Assembly (NCBI GenBank): GCA_020724905.1
Contig: DYGB01000001.1
Coordinates: 1,866 to 65,865, forward strand
Direction of reading: 5' to 3'
DNA: 64,000 nucleotides
Source: Candidatus Paceibacter sp.
GTDB taxonomy: Bacteria; Patescibacteriota; Minisyncoccia; UBA6257; JAGOQP01
Shown: positions 10,014-17,145 of the stretch, piece after piece
How positions within the stretch are numbered: the stretch's first letter is position 1
How the letters are laid out: every line of letters starts with the position of its first letter
Position numbers and translations under genes: made by a program
The notes under the pieces: generated by a model
The model's input: only the letters and a program-made list of their open reading frames with translations
Database searches by the model: none
What the model was told of the DNA's origin: nothing

Positions 10014-11012
10014 CTAACTACGTTTTCTTTTTATAACTTTTTGAGTAGCAATAATAATATCAGAAGAAAGAAGTTTGTACTGTTTGTACAATTCATACCC
10101 AGTACCTGATTGACCAAATTGTCCATCAACACCAATAAACTCCATAGGAACAGGATTCTTTTTTGAAAGTAGTTCTGAAATTGCAGATCCAATTCCTCCA
10201 TAGATAGAATGTTCTTCAACACTCACCACAGCCCCCGCTCGAGCTACCCATGAGAGAATCTCTTTGGTATCAAGAGGAACAATTGAAGGAACGTTAATAA
10301 CGACACTATGAATCTTTTTCTTTTCAAGATCACGAGCTGCCTTAAGAGCTTCATGAAGTACCGGTCCTGCGCCAATCAACACAACATCAACACGTTTTGT
10401 TTTAGGAATCCAGAGTGGATAGGCTCTCCCTATCTGAAATGGTGTATCTTTTGTTGTGATAACAGGTGTTTTCTCTCTTTGTAAACGAATATATACAGGA
10501 CCCCTCACTCCTGCTGCAGCAACAGTAGCTCGTTGTGCCTCAAGCGCATCAAGAGGAACAAGAACTCTCATATTTGCCATAGAACGCATCAGTGCAATAT
10601 CTTCAAGACTCTGATGTGTTGCTCCATCAGGACCAGTTAACAGCCCCGCATGATGTCCTGCTATTTTGACATTCGAATCGTTATACGCACACAACGTACG
10701 AATCTGTTCCCAGTTTCTTCCAGGAGAAAATGTTGCATACGAGTTAATAAAAGGAATCTTTCCAGAAATACCCATCCCTGCAGCAACAGCTGCCATATTC
10801 TGCTCAGCAACACCAACATCAAAGAATCGATCAGGATAGAGACGAGAAAACCAGTGACATCGAGTTGATTCTTCCAAATCAGCGGTAATAACAACAACGT
10901 TTTCATTTTCTCCAGCTTCTAAAAGACCCCTCCCATACCCATCTCGAAGAGCCTGCATGTCTTCATGCCCTGAAAAAAGTGTGTGTGAAAGTGAAAGCGC
11001 TTTGTGTATCAT
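10014..11012 (-). CDS. Transketolase, C-terminal subunit
   Basis: GVAEQNM; GPDGATHQ; VEEHSIYGGIG. Confidence 0.93.
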   Translation of the reverse strand: MIHKALSLSHTLFSGHEDMQALRDGYGRGLLEAGENENVVVITADLEESTRCHWFSRLYPDRFFDVGVAEQNMAAVAAGMGISGKIPFINSYATFSPGRNWEQIRTLCAYNDSNVKIAGHHAGLLTGPDGATHQSLEDIALMRSMANMRVLVPLDALEAQRATVAAAGVRGPVYIRLQREKTPVITTKDTPFQIGRAYPLWIPKTKRVDVVLIGAGPVLHEALKAARDLEKKKIHSVVINVPSIVPLDTKEILSWVARAGAVVSVEEHSIYGGIGSAISELLSKKNPVPMEFIGVDGQFGQSGTGYELYKQYKLLSSDIIIATQKVIKRKRS

Positions 11013-11347
11013 GCTTCTTCTTTACCTAAACGAATAATACGAACGTGAAACCAAAAGAGTGGTAACCCTACAAGAATAAACGCAAGTGACTGAGAAAGTT
11101 CTCTGTGAGTACGAGCTGTTTGTTCTTTTTGTTGATATTCCTCTAACTGTTGTTGATCTATATCTTTCTCTCCATCAGGTGTTTCAAGCCGCATAGGGTA
11201 TGCATAGTATGAATCAGCATCGGTAAATACAAATGAGCGAAATCCAAGATCAATCATCTGCACAGATCCAATAACTAAAATAATGAGCCCAACTGATGCA
11301 AAGATATACAGATACAATGTTCGAATGAATGTAGATTGAAGTGCCAT
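11009..11347 (-). CDS. Small two-TM membrane protein
   Basis: TM helices at both ends (LYLYIFASVGL...; LAFILVGLPLFWFH) with a polar loop between them. Confidence 0.75.
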   Translation of the reverse strand: MALQSTFIRTLYLYIFASVGLIILVIGSVQMIDLGFRSFVFTDADSYYAYPMRLETPDGEKDIDQQQLEEYQQKEQTARTHRELSQSLAFILVGLPLFWFHVRIIRLGKEEA

Positions 11348-11362
11348 AGTTATATATATTAC

Positions 11363-12220
11363 TTATTCCTCCTCACTTTTAATTTTTCCCCCAAGCTTTC
11401 GAAGCTGTCGCAGTGCTTCTCGTGCTTGTTTCTTGTTTGGTGGCATCCCATGCCACACATATTCTCGTTCCATAAAATCAACTCCTTTCCCTGGTATGGT
11501 ATGAGCAATAATAACGGTTGGTTTCTCATAGACTGCCTTTGCTTCGAATACTGCGCCGATAAATTCCTCAATATTATGTCCATCAACATCAATAACGTTC
11601 CATCCACATGCTTCATATTTATCTCGAAGTGGCTCTAAAGGAAGTACATCCTCTGTATACCCATCAATCTGAATATTGTTCCGATCAATAACAGCGGTAA
11701 GGTTGTTGAGACGATATTTCCCTGCAAGCATAATAGCTTCCCAGGTATTTCCTTCTCCATGCTCTCCATCAGAAAGAACAACATAGGTTCGAAACTTCTT
11801 CTTGTCTAGTCGCGCACTCAATGCAACACCAATTCCCTGAGAGAGTCCTGATCCAAGAGGACCTGATGTTGTTTCAATTCCAGGAAGTGAAAGGCGGTGA
11901 GGATGTCCTTGTAGAGGAGAGGCAAATGAACGAAGTGTTTTTAACTTTCGGAGAGGAAAATATCCAGAACGTGCAAGCGCTGCATATTGGATAGGACAAA
12001 TATGCCCATTAGAAAGGATAAGCCGATCCCTCTCATCATATGAGGGATCCTTTGGATCATGGTTAAGAATATAAAAATAAAATGCACTCATTATATCTGC
12101 CATACCAAGAGGTCCTGCAGAATGCCCTGATCCTGCACTCTCAAGCATCCCAATAACATCTTGGCGTAATTGATTTGCAGTACTGTACAATTCTTTTATA
12201 CGTGCATGTGAGATATACAT
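11363..12220 (-). CDS. Transketolase, N-terminal (TPP-binding) subunit
   Basis: SGHSAG; RDRLILSNGH; LQGHP; SDGE...GNTWEA...DRN; GKGV...WHG. Confidence 0.93.
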   Translation of the reverse strand: MYISHARIKELYSTANQLRQDVIGMLESAGSGHSAGPLGMADIMSAFYFYILNHDPKDPSYDERDRLILSNGHICPIQYAALARSGYFPLRKLKTLRSFASPLQGHPHRLSLPGIETTSGPLGSGLSQGIGVALSARLDKKKFRTYVVLSDGEHGEGNTWEAIMLAGKYRLNNLTAVIDRNNIQIDGYTEDVLPLEPLRDKYEACGWNVIDVDGHNIEEFIGAVFEAKAVYEKPTVIIAHTIPGKGVDFMEREYVWHGMPPNKKQAREALRQLRKLGGKIKSEEE

Positions 12221-12221
12221 A

Positions 12222-12848
12222 TCAAAGTGATATAAGTTGACGATACGCTAATGATGGATCGTTATGCTGCCAAATAAAGGATGCGGAGATAATTCGTTCA
12301 ATTCCTTTCCCTCGTAAATGCAGTGCTGCTTCCGGTTCTATTCCTCCATCAACACTCAGTATACCATGCGCAGATACCTGCCTCAACGTTGTTATATGAG
12401 CATCAATCATATGAGAAAATGATTGTCCAGATGCACCAGGACTCACTGCGAGAAGTAATGTATGAGAAGCAACATGGGAAGAAAAAAATGAACGGATAGT
12501 TTCCTCTGTATCATGAATATCAAACACAGGAACACTTTTCTGATACTCCCACAGTGTATCATCTTTTACCGCTCGAGGATGAAAATATAGATAAGAAAAA
12601 AGATCGTCCTCCAAAAGATCTGCAACATCTTTACACGAATGCACCTCTCTCATCACATGTGCCTCATAGGTAAAAGACGGATACTGAGCCATCACCGCTC
12701 TGTCCCAATATGAATCTTGAGAAGAAAATGGTTTTTGAGATATATCAATATGTAGTGCTGAAGGAAATGGAGAAAAATGACTCACCGCCTCAAGACGCTC
12801 TGAGAAACATTCAGGAGAGGAACAATTAAGAGCAGGGATAACTATCAT
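12222..12848 (-). CDS. rpe: Ribulose-phosphate 3-epimerase (divergent)
   Basis: HIDI; EAHVM; VSPGASGQ; VDGGI; located between rpiB and transketolase. Confidence 0.82.
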   Translation of the reverse strand: MIVIPALNCSSPECFSERLEAVSHFSPFPSALHIDISQKPFSSQDSYWDRAVMAQYPSFTYEAHVMREVHSCKDVADLLEDDLFSYLYFHPRAVKDDTLWEYQKSVPVFDIHDTEETIRSFFSSHVASHTLLLAVSPGASGQSFSHMIDAHITTLRQVSAHGILSVDGGIEPEAALHLRGKGIERIISASFIWQHNDPSLAYRQLISL

Positions 12849-13312
12849 ACAGAACCAAACCCATTACGTGTTTCAATGTCTTTTATATCCTGGATACGTT
12901 TTAGATGTTGAGGATCATTATCAAACGGAGTATCAAGCCATGCAGATACAATTTGAATCGCCTCATCTCGAGAAAGCATATCAGCCCCCAGTGCAAGCAC
13001 ATTCGTATCATCATGTTCCCGAGATACTGCCGCATGCTCAGGAGAAAAACTTAATACACTTCGAATGAAACGAAATTTGTTTGCTACGATATCAACACCA
13101 ACACCAGACCCACAAATAACAATCCCCCGATGATTAAATGGATCTTTACTTACTGCCTCAGCAGTTTTTGCTGCAAACTCTGGATAATCATCATTCTCAT
13201 CGTACTCACTATTCCCACAATCAACAACGTGATACCCTACCGATTTCAGGTAGGTAATAATCTCTTCTTTAAGGGAAAATCCCCTATGATCAGCTCCAAT
13301 ACAAATAACCAT
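12845..13312 (-). CDS. rpiB: Ribose-5-phosphate isomerase B
   Basis: GADHRG; DDYP; ICGSGVG; ANK; REHDDTNVL. Confidence 0.94.
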   Translation of the reverse strand: MVICIGADHRGFSLKEEIITYLKSVGYHVVDCGNSEYDENDDYPEFAAKTAEAVSKDPFNHRGIVICGSGVGVDIVANKFRFIRSVLSFSPEHAAVSREHDDTNVLALGADMLSRDEAIQIVSAWLDTPFDNDPQHLKRIQDIKDIETRNGFGSV

Positions 13313-13338
13313 ATATCTTAGTATACAAAAAAATCTCC

Positions 13339-14316
13339 TTACTGTAACGTGGCAGAACTTGGAGTAATGCTCTGAACCTGATATCGCTCAGAAAGCTTGC
13401 TGTCAAATAACGAGACCGACTCAATTCCTTCCATAGAAACATCAACAATCCCCACCATTCCACGCATGGTTTCATCAGAAAAATACTGATCAAAGATAAA
13501 ATTCCCAAGGCTGTAAAAAATAACTCCTCCCTTGTACCAGGCAACATCTTGAACGACATGGGGATGATGCCCCACAACAATATCAACCCCTGCATCAATA
13601 AGACGATGTGCAAGATTCTCTTGTCGTTGATTAAATACTTCGTATTCCTCTCCCCAGTGCAGTGAAACAACCTGAATATCACTTATCTCCAAAGATTCCC
13701 TTACACGATCAAATACCAAAGGATCATCACACCCAAAAAGTCCAGGAGTATTTCCTGCACGAGCAAACTCTCCAAACACATCACTACAAGCAAAAAAAGA
13801 AACACGTGGATTTTCCCCCACAACAACAATTTCAGATGCTGCCTCCTTATTCTCCCCCACACCAACACTTTCAATACCATGTGCGGACAATATGCTAACA
13901 GTATCTAGTAACGCCTCAGCACCCCAATCATAAATGTGATTATTAGCAAGAGAAAGAACAGAAAAATGACTCTCTAAAAGACCCTCTATGACACGAGGAT
14001 CGGAACGAAAAGAATATACCGAACCCATATCAGTCCCTCTCTCAGAAATAGAAGTCTCTAAATTTCCAAACACAATATCACTATCAGAGAAAAAATCCTT
14101 ACTCACCCCAAAAGGATAGAGCGGATCATCTTCTTCCTTGATAATCTTCCCCACACTACGAGAAAGCATAATATCCCCCACAACTGCAATTGAAACAGAT
14201 TGAGGAGAAGAGTTTTCTTGCATGAGAGACTCATCCCTTTTCTCTTCAGGAGGAAATATAAAAACAAACGAAAGAATAAACAAGCACACAACACCTATCC
14301 ATAAAAATTGTCTCAT
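13339..14316 (-). CDS. CapA/PgsA family membrane-anchored metallophosphatase
   Basis: VGDIML; GNLE; LANNH; HWGEEY; GHHPHV; YSLGNF. Confidence 0.9.
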   Translation of the reverse strand: MRQFLWIGVVCLFILSFVFIFPPEEKRDESLMQENSSPQSVSIAVVGDIMLSRSVGKIIKEEDDPLYPFGVSKDFFSDSDIVFGNLETSISERGTDMGSVYSFRSDPRVIEGLLESHFSVLSLANNHIYDWGAEALLDTVSILSAHGIESVGVGENKEAASEIVVVGENPRVSFFACSDVFGEFARAGNTPGLFGCDDPLVFDRVRESLEISDIQVVSLHWGEEYEVFNQRQENLAHRLIDAGVDIVVGHHPHVVQDVAWYKGGVIFYSLGNFIFDQYFSDETMRGMVGIVDVSMEGIESVSLFDSKLSERYQVQSITPSSATLQ

Positions 14317-14319
14317 ATA

Positions 14320-15345
14320 CTAGGAACGGTGTTGAGCAATTGCTTCTGCATGAGCACGAAGTGTTGCTACATACCCCCACTCATTGTCATACCATGAAAG
14401 AATCTTTACCAAATCTCCATCAACAACACGGGTATAGGAAAGATCAACAAGAGCTCCATAGGGCATACCAATAACATCTGAAGAAACGATAGGATCATGT
14501 GTCACAGCAAAGGTTCCTCTCCATCGTGGGTCAGAAGCTCCTTTCTCTAAAATACTATTCACTTCCTCAACACTTGTTTTCTTCTTTGATACGAATACAA
14601 CATCAGCAACTGATCCAGCAATAACAGGAACACGAAAGGCAATACCATCAAATGTATCTGCAAATGATGCTTGTGCACGCCCCAGTGCATGAGCAGCTCC
14701 TGTGCTAGAAGGAATAATATTCTGAGCAGCAGCACGTCCTCGTCTCACATCCTTTCCTTTTTGCACTGTATCAACAAGACTCTGTGTTGATGTATACCCA
14801 TGGACCGTACTCAACATTGCCTTTGTAATACCAATTGTTTCAGAAAGAAGCGCAAGTGGAGGAGAAATTGCATTTGTCGTACATGATGCATTCGAAGAAA
14901 TAGAGCAGGTAGCAAGGTCACCCTCATTAACTCCAATGAGGACTGTTTTCCCCCTCTCCCCATCATCATCCTTAGAAGGAGCGCTCATGAGTACATGTGA
15001 AGCTCCTGCGCTCAAATGAGCAGAGGCTTTTTCATAGGTAGTAAATACACCTGTTGATTCGATAACAATATCAACACCTAGTTCTTTCCAGGGAAGCTTA
15101 GTAGGATCAGGTTCATGAAAAAACGGAATGCTTTTATCACCAACGATAATATGATCACCCTGAACTTTTACCGACTCACCAAAGGTACGATATACAGAAT
15201 CGTATGTGAGGAGATAAGCAAGATTATCTATATTACCAAGGTCATTAACCCCAACAATCTCACACCACTCTTGATTATAGACCTGCCTAAAAAATAATCG
15301 TCCGATACGACCAAATCCATTTATTGCAATACGTACTGGTTTCAT
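14320..15345 (-). CDS. gap: Glyceraldehyde-3-phosphate dehydrogenase (type I)
   Basis: INGFGRIGR; SNASCTTN; WYDNEWGY. Confidence 0.96.
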   Translation of the reverse strand: MKPVRIAINGFGRIGRLFFRQVYNQEWCEIVGVNDLGNIDNLAYLLTYDSVYRTFGESVKVQGDHIIVGDKSIPFFHEPDPTKLPWKELGVDIVIESTGVFTTYEKASAHLSAGASHVLMSAPSKDDDGERGKTVLIGVNEGDLATCSISSNASCTTNAISPPLALLSETIGITKAMLSTVHGYTSTQSLVDTVQKGKDVRRGRAAAQNIIPSSTGAAHALGRAQASFADTFDGIAFRVPVIAGSVADVVFVSKKKTSVEEVNSILEKGASDPRWRGTFAVTHDPIVSSDVIGMPYGALVDLSYTRVVDGDLVKILSWYDNEWGYVATLRAHAEAIAQHRS

Positions 15346-15390: not shown

Positions 15391-16575
15391 TTATCGTATC
15401 TCTGCTCCTAACTCTTCTTGAGTTTTTTGAATAATGGTTCCTTGGATATTATTTACCTCATCATTGGTAAGGGTTCTTTCTGGAGAACGATACACGATAC
15501 GAAATGTGTAACTCACTTTCCCAGAACCAAATTTTTCTTTATTTCGATAGGTGTCAGTAAGTTTAACCTCCTCAATAAGATCATCAGCACAATCACGAAC
15601 AATTTCATAATAGTTATTCAAGCTTGTTTCCTCAGGAACAATAAAAGAAATATCTCGATAGGTCATAGGGTACTTACTCACCTCTTCATATACACTATCA
15701 AGACCTCTAAACTGATCTACGATACGAGGATCATCAGACCAAAATACACGGATATCAGGAATCTGCATCTTTGCCATAGCAAGTCGCTCAAGTCCAAATC
15801 CAAATGCCCATCCGTTATATACTTCAGGATCAACTCCCATACGTTTAAGAACTTCAGTGTGCACCACTCCGGCACCAACGACTTCAAGCCATTGTTTCTC
15901 TTCTTTTTCCTCTTCATCATTCCCCTTTCTCATAACTTCAATTTCAATCTGCGTACTTGGATTCGTAAACGGAAAAGTATCTTCTAAAAATCGATAGGTA
16001 ATACCATCTCCATAGATAGCTTTGGTAATAGCGGTTAACACTTCCTGTAGTTCAGGAATTCCAATAATATGTTTTTCTTTTTTGCAGATATAGAGTCCAT
16101 CTACCTGATGGAATACAGGAAAGTGATTCCTGTCTATCTCATCTTTCCGAAATACTTTCCCATGCGCTAAAAGACCCACCTCTCCTTCTTGTTCCAATTC
16201 TTCCATCGTTTCTTTCCGACGAAGATAGTAGGGCCACATCGTTGTCGTATGTGTTCGAAGTACATGAGTATCGTCAACATAATATGTATCAGTTTCATTC
16301 CGACTTGGATGATCTGAGGGTGTGTTTAAAATATCAAAATTATCCTCAACACTGACAATTTCAGGAAAATGCATTACATCAAACTGTGTAAACATATCCA
16401 ATGCAAGCACTGCATCAACAATATATTTGATAGGAGACCTTTCTTTTCGAGACAGATCAGGTAAGTGTAAAAGACGTTGCAAGCGAAGACCCTTAACATC
16501 TTCGCGTGTTTCAACGTCTTTTCTCAGTTTTTCACTGACAGGATCTGTGATATCGATATAATGTCTATCTGTCAT
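15391..16575 (-). CDS. Phenylalanine--tRNA ligase, monomeric (alpha catalytic domain fused to an FDX-ACB anticodon-binding domain)
   Basis: NFDILNTPSDHPSR; LRTHTT; FRKDEIDRNHFPVFHQ; FPFTNPS; GWAFGFGLERLAM; C-terminal SKYP..RDISF...YRSPERTLT..EVN...IR. Start ATG 16575; the track start lies inside the tRNA. Confidence 0.9.
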   Translation of the reverse strand: MTDRHYIDITDPVSEKLRKDVETREDVKGLRLQRLLHLPDLSRKERSPIKYIVDAVLALDMFTQFDVMHFPEIVSVEDNFDILNTPSDHPSRNETDTYYVDDTHVLRTHTTTMWPYYLRRKETMEELEQEGEVGLLAHGKVFRKDEIDRNHFPVFHQVDGLYICKKEKHIIGIPELQEVLTAITKAIYGDGITYRFLEDTFPFTNPSTQIEIEVMRKGNDEEEKEEKQWLEVVGAGVVHTEVLKRMGVDPEVYNGWAFGFGLERLAMAKMQIPDIRVFWSDDPRIVDQFRGLDSVYEEVSKYPMTYRDISFIVPEETSLNNYYEIVRDCADDLIEEVKLTDTYRNKEKFGSGKVSYTFRIVYRSPERTLTNDEVNNIQGTIIQKTQEELGAEIR

Positions 16576-16649
16576 AATAATCCCAGTGTACTGAAAAAAA
16601 GACTGAAAAACAAATAAAAACACCTCTTTAAAAGAGATGTTTATATCTG

Positions 16650-16735
16650 TGCGCGAGAGAGGACTCGAACCTCCACGGGACGTAATGCCCACTACCACCT
16701 CAAGGTAGCGCGTCTACCAATTCCGCCACCCGCGC
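16650..16735 (-). tRNA. tRNA-Leu(GAG)
   Basis: GCGCGGG acceptor stem; CTACC-TTGAGGT-GGTAG anticodon arm; long variable arm; GGTTCGAGTCC; no encoded CCA. Confidence 0.95.
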
Positions 16736-16790: not shown

Positions 16791-16820
16791 AAAAGAGAGC
16801 TCAGGCGAGCTCTCTTTTTT
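16791..16820 (-). terminator. Intrinsic terminator after rplS
   Basis: AAAAGAGAGCTC-loop-GAGCTCTCTTTT. Confidence 0.8.
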
Positions 16821-17145
16821 AGAGTGATACTCCAATCTTCTTTCGAGACATTCTCTTAGAGACTTTTCTAAGATAATAGAGTTTTGCACGACGAACACGT
16901 GTTGGTTCAGTTACCACGGTAACTGATGCAATAAGTGGTGAGTGAAATGGATAAATCTTTTCAACCCCAACACTGTCAACAACACTACGAACGATAAAGG
17001 TAGCATTCTTCTGCGTACCATTCTTTCGTGCAAGCACAATGCCACGAAACGGTGTTGTTCGTTCTTTATCTTTTTCCTTGATACGCTCTTGTACTACAAC
17101 GAGCATTCCAGGTTTAATTTTCTCAATTGCTTCTATTCCAGTCAT
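16819..17145 (-). CDS. rplS: 50S ribosomal protein L19
   Basis: RIKEKDKER; FRGIVLA; GVEKIYPFHSP; VRRAKLYYLR. Confidence 0.95.
   Translation of the reverse strand: MTGIEAIEKIKPGMLVVVQERIKEKDKERTTPFRGIVLARKNGTQKNATFIVRSVVDSVGVEKIYPFHSPLIASVTVVTEPTRVRRAKLYYLRKVSKRMSRKKIGVSL

Follow-up and report, generated by a model that had tools for sequence, protein, structure and literature searches.

A single-chain, mitochondrial-type phenylalanyl-tRNA synthetase gene, with no other PheRS gene found, in a Patescibacteria genome

A review (PMC3275996) presents the heterotetrameric phenylalanyl-tRNA synthetase (PheRS) as the form shared by every known prokaryotic species, and names no monomeric class II synthetase other than the mitochondrial enzyme. 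The organellar class bears the name PheRS-M in AARS Online, according to the accessible part of PMC11580382. Kijima et al. 2024 observed that viral PheRS groups with the organellar enzymes and suggested that these proteins are monomers (PMC11304981, accessible portion, in which neither "CPR" nor "candidate phyla" occurs). The architecture is already known from organelles and giant viruses, and an NCBI model, NF051887 "PheS-related mystery ligase SrmL", exists for one bacterial branch. The SrmL name did not occur in the literature searched for it, and we know of no biochemical function for these proteins. In the literature outside most subscription journals, no bacterial one-chain PheRS was found to be described, and none is described in the accessible parts of PMC8136816, PMC11580382, PMC4494062, PMC5370408, PMC6744442, PMC7373986, PMC5388404 and PMC10810186.

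The present analysis concerns such a gene on a bacterial chromosome. The explanation retained, at a probability of roughly 0.85, is that its product, P0001, would be the stand-alone housekeeping PheRS of this bacterium, similar to human FARS2 and devoid of post-transfer editing.

Gene, domains and sole-gene status

The window, that is the whole stretch of 64,000 nucleotides that was analysed, belongs to a genome assembly (G000) of 575,572 bases in 9 contigs that is 98.5% complete. Translation of window:15391-16575 on the minus strand gives P0001, 394 residues followed by a stop. The features of the locus are the following:

15391..16575, minus strand: single-chain phenylalanyl-tRNA synthetase gene (P0001), 394 aa, from frame, domains and model
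16450..16575, minus strand: N-terminal extension, residues 1-42, with two short helices in the model; PF02912 unmatched in the genome
15709..16449, minus strand: class II catalytic core, residues 43-289, from PF01409 and alignments
15394..15678, minus strand: FDX-ACB (B8) anticodon-binding domain, residues 300-394, from PF03147
16618..16642, minus strand: terminator-like hairpin in the interval from tRNA-Leu to the start codon, fold z-score -4.65
16649..16735, minus strand: tRNA-Leu(GAG), upstream neighbour
16819..17145, minus strand: rplS, upstream, marking the slot common with pheS-pheT of the relative G005
14320..15345, minus strand: gap (GAPDH), downstream, marking the slot common with pheS-pheT of the relative G001

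An alternative GTG frame of 435 residues begins within tRNA-Leu(GAG), and close homologues mostly measure 382-384 residues, with alignments that begin at residue 1-3; the ATG at 16575 is therefore the likely start, and the GTG start was rejected for its overlap with the tRNA. The hairpin is strong, none of 200 shuffles matching it in stability, and some 40 nt separate it from the start of PheRS. It directly follows tRNA-Leu; the PheRS gene may need read-through past this predicted terminator or a short promoter of its own. On the other side, 45 nt separate the gene from gap. The third-position GC content (GC3) of the gene, 0.27, falls inside the range of five neighbours (0.24-0.30) and thus gives no sign here of recent transfer. 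Same-strand genes after PheRS (window 10014-15345, minus strand) comprise gap, a CapA-family gene and rpiB as well as, by eye, genes resembling rpe, the halves of a split transketolase and a PfkB kinase. Elsewhere in the genome, ARAGORN identified a tRNA-Ile with a TAT anticodon (G000:C7:156247-156320), which is unusual for bacteria, where a lysidine-modified CAT is mostly found instead.

As an earlier note on this DNA had proposed, the frame joins a PheRS alpha core (PF01409, 197.7 bits) to an FDX-ACB domain (PF03147, 88.7 bits). All the motifs quoted in that note are present, namely N79-R92, YY at 98-99, LRTHT at 106-110, GWAFGFGLERLAM at 255-267, SKYP at 300-303 and RDISF at 307-311, but the spacer between the last two counts three residues and not two. 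The N-terminal coiled coil of PheS is absent as claimed, although some 40 residues precede the core and form helices at 12-23 and 27-37 in the model. Near residues 215-227, the core also contains an acidic insertion, about 11 residues long.

The best NCBIfam score of P0001 was obtained with NF051887 (255.8 bits, under the cut-off of 300), followed by the organellar model TIGR00469 (252.1 bits, just under the cut-off of 258.35) and the PheS model TIGR00468 (185.4 bits, under 237.45). A relative from the same clade, P0121, passes TIGR00469 with 264.3 bits. The organellar resemblance that had been noticed from the motifs was found again by sequence and by fold. The best PDB sequence matches were to human mitochondrial PheRS (E 3e-54), those to bacterial alpha chains being weaker (E 9e-41), and when an AlphaFold2 model (50-row alignment, pLDDT 94, pTM 0.90) was submitted to Foldseek, the top ranks were held by six tRNA-free human FARS2 structures (TM 0.77 over about 400 columns), with the open tRNA complex of FARS2 (0.57) and bacterial alpha chains (0.54 at most) lower. 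The closed pose of the model brings no independent support, since AlphaFold has seen human FARS2 structures. Matches in the ESM Atlas were solely clusters of the same family. Direct searches with P0001 found no relative in the viral contig database and no full-length relative among annotated phage records, in which a single partial match (L054, 25.6%) lacked B8 and was excluded from trees.

The named close homologues of P0001 come from Paceibacterota/Parcubacteria. Across G000, P0001 was the only strong match to PF01409, the two weak ones (23 and 15 bits) lying in other frames of about 490 aa. A search of the genome for pheT with TIGR00472 returned only the B8 domain of P0001 and two weak unrelated stretches. 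As to separate domains, B3/4 (PF03483), B5 (PF03484), the PheS coiled coil (PF02912), the PheT catalytic-like module (PF17759) and the YbaK/ProX domain (PF04073) were unmatched across G000, in searches that were each positive in 11-14 of 14 control genomes. The earlier note had reported no adjacent pheT and predicted a lack of Tyr editing; neither pheT nor B3/4 was found anywhere in the genome, and P0001 was the only PheRS gene found when canonical pheST was sought. A single tRNA-Phe(GAA) is present.

Distribution and a chromosomal slot shared with pheS-pheT

Among 41 relatives including G000, the one-chain gene was found in 23, the canonical genes in 17 (one with PheT only) and neither in 1. 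In a sample of the class, a hand count at E below 1e-55 gave the one-chain gene in 106/401 genomes, about a quarter, with 13 lacking a match; in a sample of the phylum it was present in 20/300 besides G000. The two states are close to mutually exclusive. The PheT module PF17759 was matched in 0/43 carriers versus 17/18 non-carriers, and all 43 carriers had exactly one match to TIGR00468. In the same way, 134 of the 136 carriers searched (out of 139) had no B3/4, whereas the domain was present in 24/24 pheST genomes used as controls. These counts refer to genomes that are kin rather than independent and mostly metagenome assemblies; the carriers without B3/4 include six single-contig genomes. 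One carrier, G290, showed a weak B3/4 match of 50 residues, and another, G413, had the one-chain gene and a complete pheS-pheT pair on separate contigs (L356, L357). Two one-chain copies were also observed in G626. Both G413 and G626 may represent either real intermediates or binning errors.

Both states were encountered within 20 families (hand count) and in family f1, and even within the genera g49, g294 and g359. In families f1, f155 and f34, the one-chain gene and pheS-pheT occupy a common slot. The same five upstream and five downstream genes surround the one-chain gene of G516 and the pheS-pheT pair of G348, two members of g294. In the family of the window, four upstream genes match those of G005, a pheST genome with two further ORFs in between, and the downstream gap-rpiB arrangement matches that of G001, also a pheST genome; gap follows the one-chain gene in 7/8 family loci examined. 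In g49, the one-chain gene lies in the same interval between a UvrD-like gene and gyrB, inverted relative to pheS-pheT. In a 73-row carrier tree (quick LG+G4), families f155, f188, f194 and f156 each formed one clade, and f33, f52, f34, f166 and f203 were split across starred branches. The tree follows families only in part, which suggests vertical descent mixed with transfer among CPR. Within Patescibacteria, the one-chain gene and pheS-pheT would have replaced one another repeatedly in a common chromosomal slot.

Among canonical CPR PheS, some measure just 225-255 aa and have no N-terminal coiled coil (L142:4216-4962, L143:4280-4960, L351, L352, L360, L361). The PheT encoded downstream of them measures about 600-756 aa and retains B3/4; the two represent a two-subunit form that is reduced. 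CPR PheT is often devoid of B2, according to the accessible part of PMC5370408.

Residues, trees and competing explanations

By alignment and spacing, P0001 possesses class II motifs 2 and 3, the Phe-pocket aromatics, the Ala gate and the G34/A35 contacts, the residues concerned being R143, R264, F201, F203, A257, D308, S310, D341, Y343 and R394; T357 is a further B8 residue of note. Its pocket residues align with E. coli F248/F250/T251/A294. Judging from motif spacing, they would also be the equivalents of the Phe-pocket and G34/A35 contact residues whose roles in M. tuberculosis PheRS are given in the accessible part of PMC8136816, with further pocket roles in that of PMC3275996. Catalytic, Phe-pocket and anticodon residues are 93-100% conserved in 212 distinct CPR sequences, F203 and Y343 being F or Y only. 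Conservation reaches 100% for H89, R92, R107, R143, H156, Q157, F201, T204, A257 and R264 and, in B8, for D308, S310 and D341, with R394 at 99%.

Two pocket positions depart from this pattern. The amino-group network includes a Gln (Mt Gln180; human Gln124) that is replaced by Trp in 211/212 CPR sequences (W114 in P0001), and the partner of this Gln, a Glu (human Glu159), is replaced by Asp in 187 and Gly in 25 (D159 in P0001). The Gln is kept in 34/35 canonical PheS, 10/10 Bacteroidota, 19/22 viral and 33/45 eukaryote-like sequences. With both replacements, the CPR pocket is that of neither known enzyme. In the human enzyme, Gln124 and Glu159 bind the hydroxyl of m-Tyr (accessible text of PMC3275996). 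W279 is invariant (100%) among the one-chain sequences of CPR, eukaryotes, viruses and Bacteroidota and was found in 0% of 35 canonical PheS. Four diagnostic columns unite CPR with the organellar, viral and Bacteroidota forms, and in five others CPR keeps the canonical state, which is retained by 11% of eukaryotic sequences at most; such a split is as expected for an early branch.

The wider family was collected through a representative search, which returned eukaryote-like sequences, four of them named organellar/eukaryotic proteins (Branchiostoma, Blumeria, Irineochytrium, Salpingoeca) and the others labelled from their N-terminal extension and, where scanned, their TIGR00469 score. It also returned short one-chain forms on viral contigs, some with phage genes (rIIA, RNA ligase) and some labelled as giant-virus assemblies. 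A one-chain PheRS is encoded at L068:3959-5062, L083:4001-5044 and L085:3992-5098, on large viral contigs that also have genes typical of phages (Thg1, NAD ligase, rIIA, RNA ligase), so the family extends beyond the giant viruses that infect eukaryotes. A genome scan with one pattern (best 80 matches) listed 344-aa one-chain genes in Bacteroidota, among them at least the cultured Chryseobacterium, Pedobacter, Sphingobacterium and Myroides (loci L145-L154, e.g. L146:4001-5035, L149:3899-5035, L151:3899-5035 and L154:3992-5032). These genes adjoin AraC and GNAT genes, and pheS and pheT were also kept in 3/3 isolate genomes checked, which makes the one-chain copy an accessory one; Sphingobacterium tabacisoli has two. 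They fall in the organellar/viral subclade, belong to experimentally tractable organisms and, among the matches listed, come closer to FARS2 than any other form from cellular prokaryotes. Hits in a Berkiella assembly (L155, phage-like neighbours) and a Nitrospiraceae assembly (L144, no Pfam match in the four neighbours examined) were rejected as true cellular genes and are probably mis-binned viral contigs.

Several side observations were made in this collection. Two one-chain proteins, P0125 and P0126, have Trp at several sites where Gly is otherwise conserved, the pattern that would arise if UGA=Gly had been read as Trp; this code assignment presumably points to Gracilibacteria/Absconditabacteria as the carriers. 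In the 872-aa P0155, a mitochondrial-type PheRS comes after an AlaRS-like region; this protein is either a fusion or a gene-model artefact. SrmL also occurs in Patescibacteria records and on actinobacterial and Azotobacter plasmids (P0297, P0323, L049:3911-5029, L050:3836-4948). Its pocket has His for Phe201 and Glu for Gly234, which suggests a substrate other than Phe.

A core tree of 45 rows and 235 columns (LG+C20 PMSF, unrooted) separated all one-chain forms from canonical PheS (100/99). Three groups were recovered among them: CPR with one Oligoflexia protein (100/99), SrmL (100/100), and eukaryotes with viruses and Bacteroidota (99/98). When a 52-row set was rooted with 10 archaeal-type PheS, the one-chain clade (100/100) arose inside a bacterial polytomy, eukaryotes were monophyletic (97/98) and CPR fell outside the clade of eukaryotes, viruses and Bacteroidota (99/98); eukaryotes were not monophyletic in the 45-, 77- (quick) and 159-row trees. 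The one-chain split was also recovered from B8 only (70 rows, 109 columns including 14 linker residues; 96/84), and organellar, viral, Bacteroidota accessory, SrmL and CPR members made up the one-chain clade in each domain tree. A nesting of the catalytic domain in ordinary bacterial PheS, against which the earlier note had set its proposal, was not seen. Partial proteins and near-duplicates (60-95% identity thresholds by group) had been dropped before tree building, as had the long-branched Mesomycoplasma PheS, which was part of the 159-row tree only. The stem of the one-chain clade is long (0.65), and outgroup sampling was thin (10-14 named bacteria, no Rickettsiales).

Topologies were compared by AU tests (20,000 replicates) under two models, LG+F+G4 and C20-PMSF. 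The order of the three one-chain subgroups was left free (p 0.41-0.55). Donor constraints on the rooted set were not rejected, whether the donor was CPR PheS (0.63), alphaproteobacterial PheS (0.10) or a lineage outside all canonical PheS (0.44); the first concerns the origin of the whole one-chain family and is a separate claim from a fusion local to CPR. The rejection of alphaproteobacterial constraints on the unrooted set restates one-chain monophyly.

Two alternative origins have to be weighed against a single fusion event shared by P0001 and the organellar, viral, Bacteroidota accessory and SrmL proteins. The first one, put forward by the earlier note beside a relation to the source of the organellar enzyme, is convergence, in which a deletion within the operon would have joined a CPR pheS to the last domain of its own pheT, the grouping with organellar forms being due to long-branch attraction. 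The gene does lie in the pheS-pheT slot, the outcome expected of such a deletion, the coiled coil is already missing from some CPR PheS, the stem is long, and the more conservative SH test did not reject a grouping of CPR one-chain forms with CPR PheS (p 0.12-0.13). Nevertheless, the same grouping was rejected by AU under both models (p 0.003 and 0.002), both domains give the same split, the P0001 core is 32-41% identical to canonical cores versus 44-47% to Bacteroidota one-chain cores, and a deletion would not produce the inverted gene of g49. Convergence is accordingly given little credit, and the presence of one clade in both domain trees together with the rejection of a CPR-local fusion favours a shared origin. 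The other possibility is that CPR captured the gene from the eukaryotic organellar enzyme, directly or through a virus. It draws on a tree uniting CPR with eukaryotes to the exclusion of viral and Bacteroidota forms, which AU did not reject (p 0.065 and 0.075), on the free order of the subgroups and on the viral contigs that offer a route. On the contrary, CPR branches outside the eukaryote, virus and Bacteroidota clade in the rooted tree, where eukaryotes are monophyletic, keeps the five canonical columns that few eukaryotic sequences retain, and has in P0001 no remnant of a transit peptide. Capture is thus considered unlikely, though a more serious contender than convergence. A single origin of the one-chain forms appears quite probable, with P0001 on an early branch of its own. 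Lying outside the organellar clade, CPR enzymes are placed by the trees as cousins of FARS2 and not its closest relatives; the idea that they are related to the source of the organellar enzyme did not find the same support, viral and Bacteroidota copies being closer.

Other readings concern what the protein is. It could be an SrmL-like ligase acting outside translation, with pheST merely missing from incomplete assemblies, given that SrmL provides its best NCBIfam score and that most genomes are metagenome assemblies. That score is under the cut-off, however, and SrmL (118 sequences) has lost H89, F155, F201 and G234 as well as the terminal Arg, all of which P0001 keeps; membership of P0001 in SrmL was therefore rejected, and the exclusivity of the one-chain gene and B3/4 nearly excludes this reading, which is held to be very improbable. 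It could also be the same enzyme, of the same origin, working as a homodimer through its N-terminal helices. This helical extension is specific to CPR and absent from organellar and viral sequences, and most class II synthetases are oligomeric; the full-length structural match of the model to the monomeric human enzyme argues against a dimer, which is regarded as a minority option.

In the housekeeping PheRS reading, one chain would activate Phe with ATP in its class II core and read the GAA anticodon with its own B8, with a closed-to-open swing on tRNA binding as in human FARS2 and no need for a beta subunit. Independence from a beta subunit is almost certain, and charging of tRNA-Phe by P0001 very highly probable from its sole-gene status. 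The lack of Tyr editing is also highly probable. A monomeric state is likely, and the swing may be reasonably expected by analogy. Since a post-transfer editing site is lacking, fidelity would have to rest on the synthetic pocket, which has been remodelled in the CPR clade (Trp114, Asp159). A role of any kind in fidelity for these two residues is tentative, and a tighter pocket offsetting the lost editing is offered as a hypothesis only.

In a broader view, the "mitochondrial" monomeric PheRS would not be an invention of mitochondria but a twig of an older, mobile one-chain family of single prokaryotic or viral origin. Its survivors would be the sole enzyme of about a quarter of Paceibacteria, the Bacteroidota accessory copies, the forms of large phages and giant viruses and the SrmL ligases, with a CPR branch that swaps with pheS-pheT in place down to the genus level and whose rebuilt pocket offsets lost proofreading. 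This broader view is considered an even bet.

Significance and comparison with known systems

A large bacterial group that relies on a one-chain PheRS clearly departs from the heterotetramer rule. It also adds branches from prokaryotes that lie outside the organellar clade, which makes the origin of FARS2/MSF1 testable. Congeneric pairs that differ only in the swap provide a natural experiment on the value of Tyr/m-Tyr proofreading in reduced genomes. In addition, genetic-code engineering may benefit from an enzyme that is compact and has an unusual pocket, and completeness scores and marker trees based on pheT will misjudge carrier genomes.

Compared with heterotetrameric PheRS (PheS/PheT; TIGR00468/TIGR00472; PDB 3PCO, 7K98), P0001 shares the catalytic motifs, the aromatics of the Phe pocket and the anticodon residues, its gene takes the same chromosomal slot in relatives, and its clade arises within bacterial-type PheS in the rooted tree. 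It differs by lacking the coiled coil, the beta subunit, B3/4, B5 and the catalytic-like module, and its gene is about 1.2 kb versus about 3 kb for pheS-pheT. SrmL has the two-domain layout and forms a bacterial branch of the one-chain clade, but its Phe pocket and anticodon surface have diverged, its branch is very long, P0001 scores under its cut-off, and two named copies lie among accessory plasmid genes. The PheRS of Nucleocytovirus and of the phage-like contigs (L068, L083, L085) are also single chains, of 338-400 aa, in the same overall clade; unlike P0001, they belong to the organellar subclade and mostly keep the Gln/Glu pair (19/22).

The closest match is the organellar monomeric PheRS (human FARS2, PDB 3CMQ/3TUP/5MGV; TIGR00469), which also combines core and B8 in one chain, lacks the coiled coil, a beta subunit and the B3/4 editing domain, has W279 and the pocket Thr (T204; Thr235 in the human mitochondrial enzyme), and belongs to the same clade in both domain trees. 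In contrast, P0001 is encoded on a bacterial chromosome, has no transit peptide, scores just below the TIGR00469 cut-off and lies outside the organellar clade. Human Gln124/Glu159 correspond to its Trp114/Asp159, the other pocket residues being kept. It lacks the animal/fungal insertion after motif 2 and possesses N-terminal helices of its own. Within the overall explanation, P0001 would work like PheRS-M and share its origin, from a branch outside the organellar clade.
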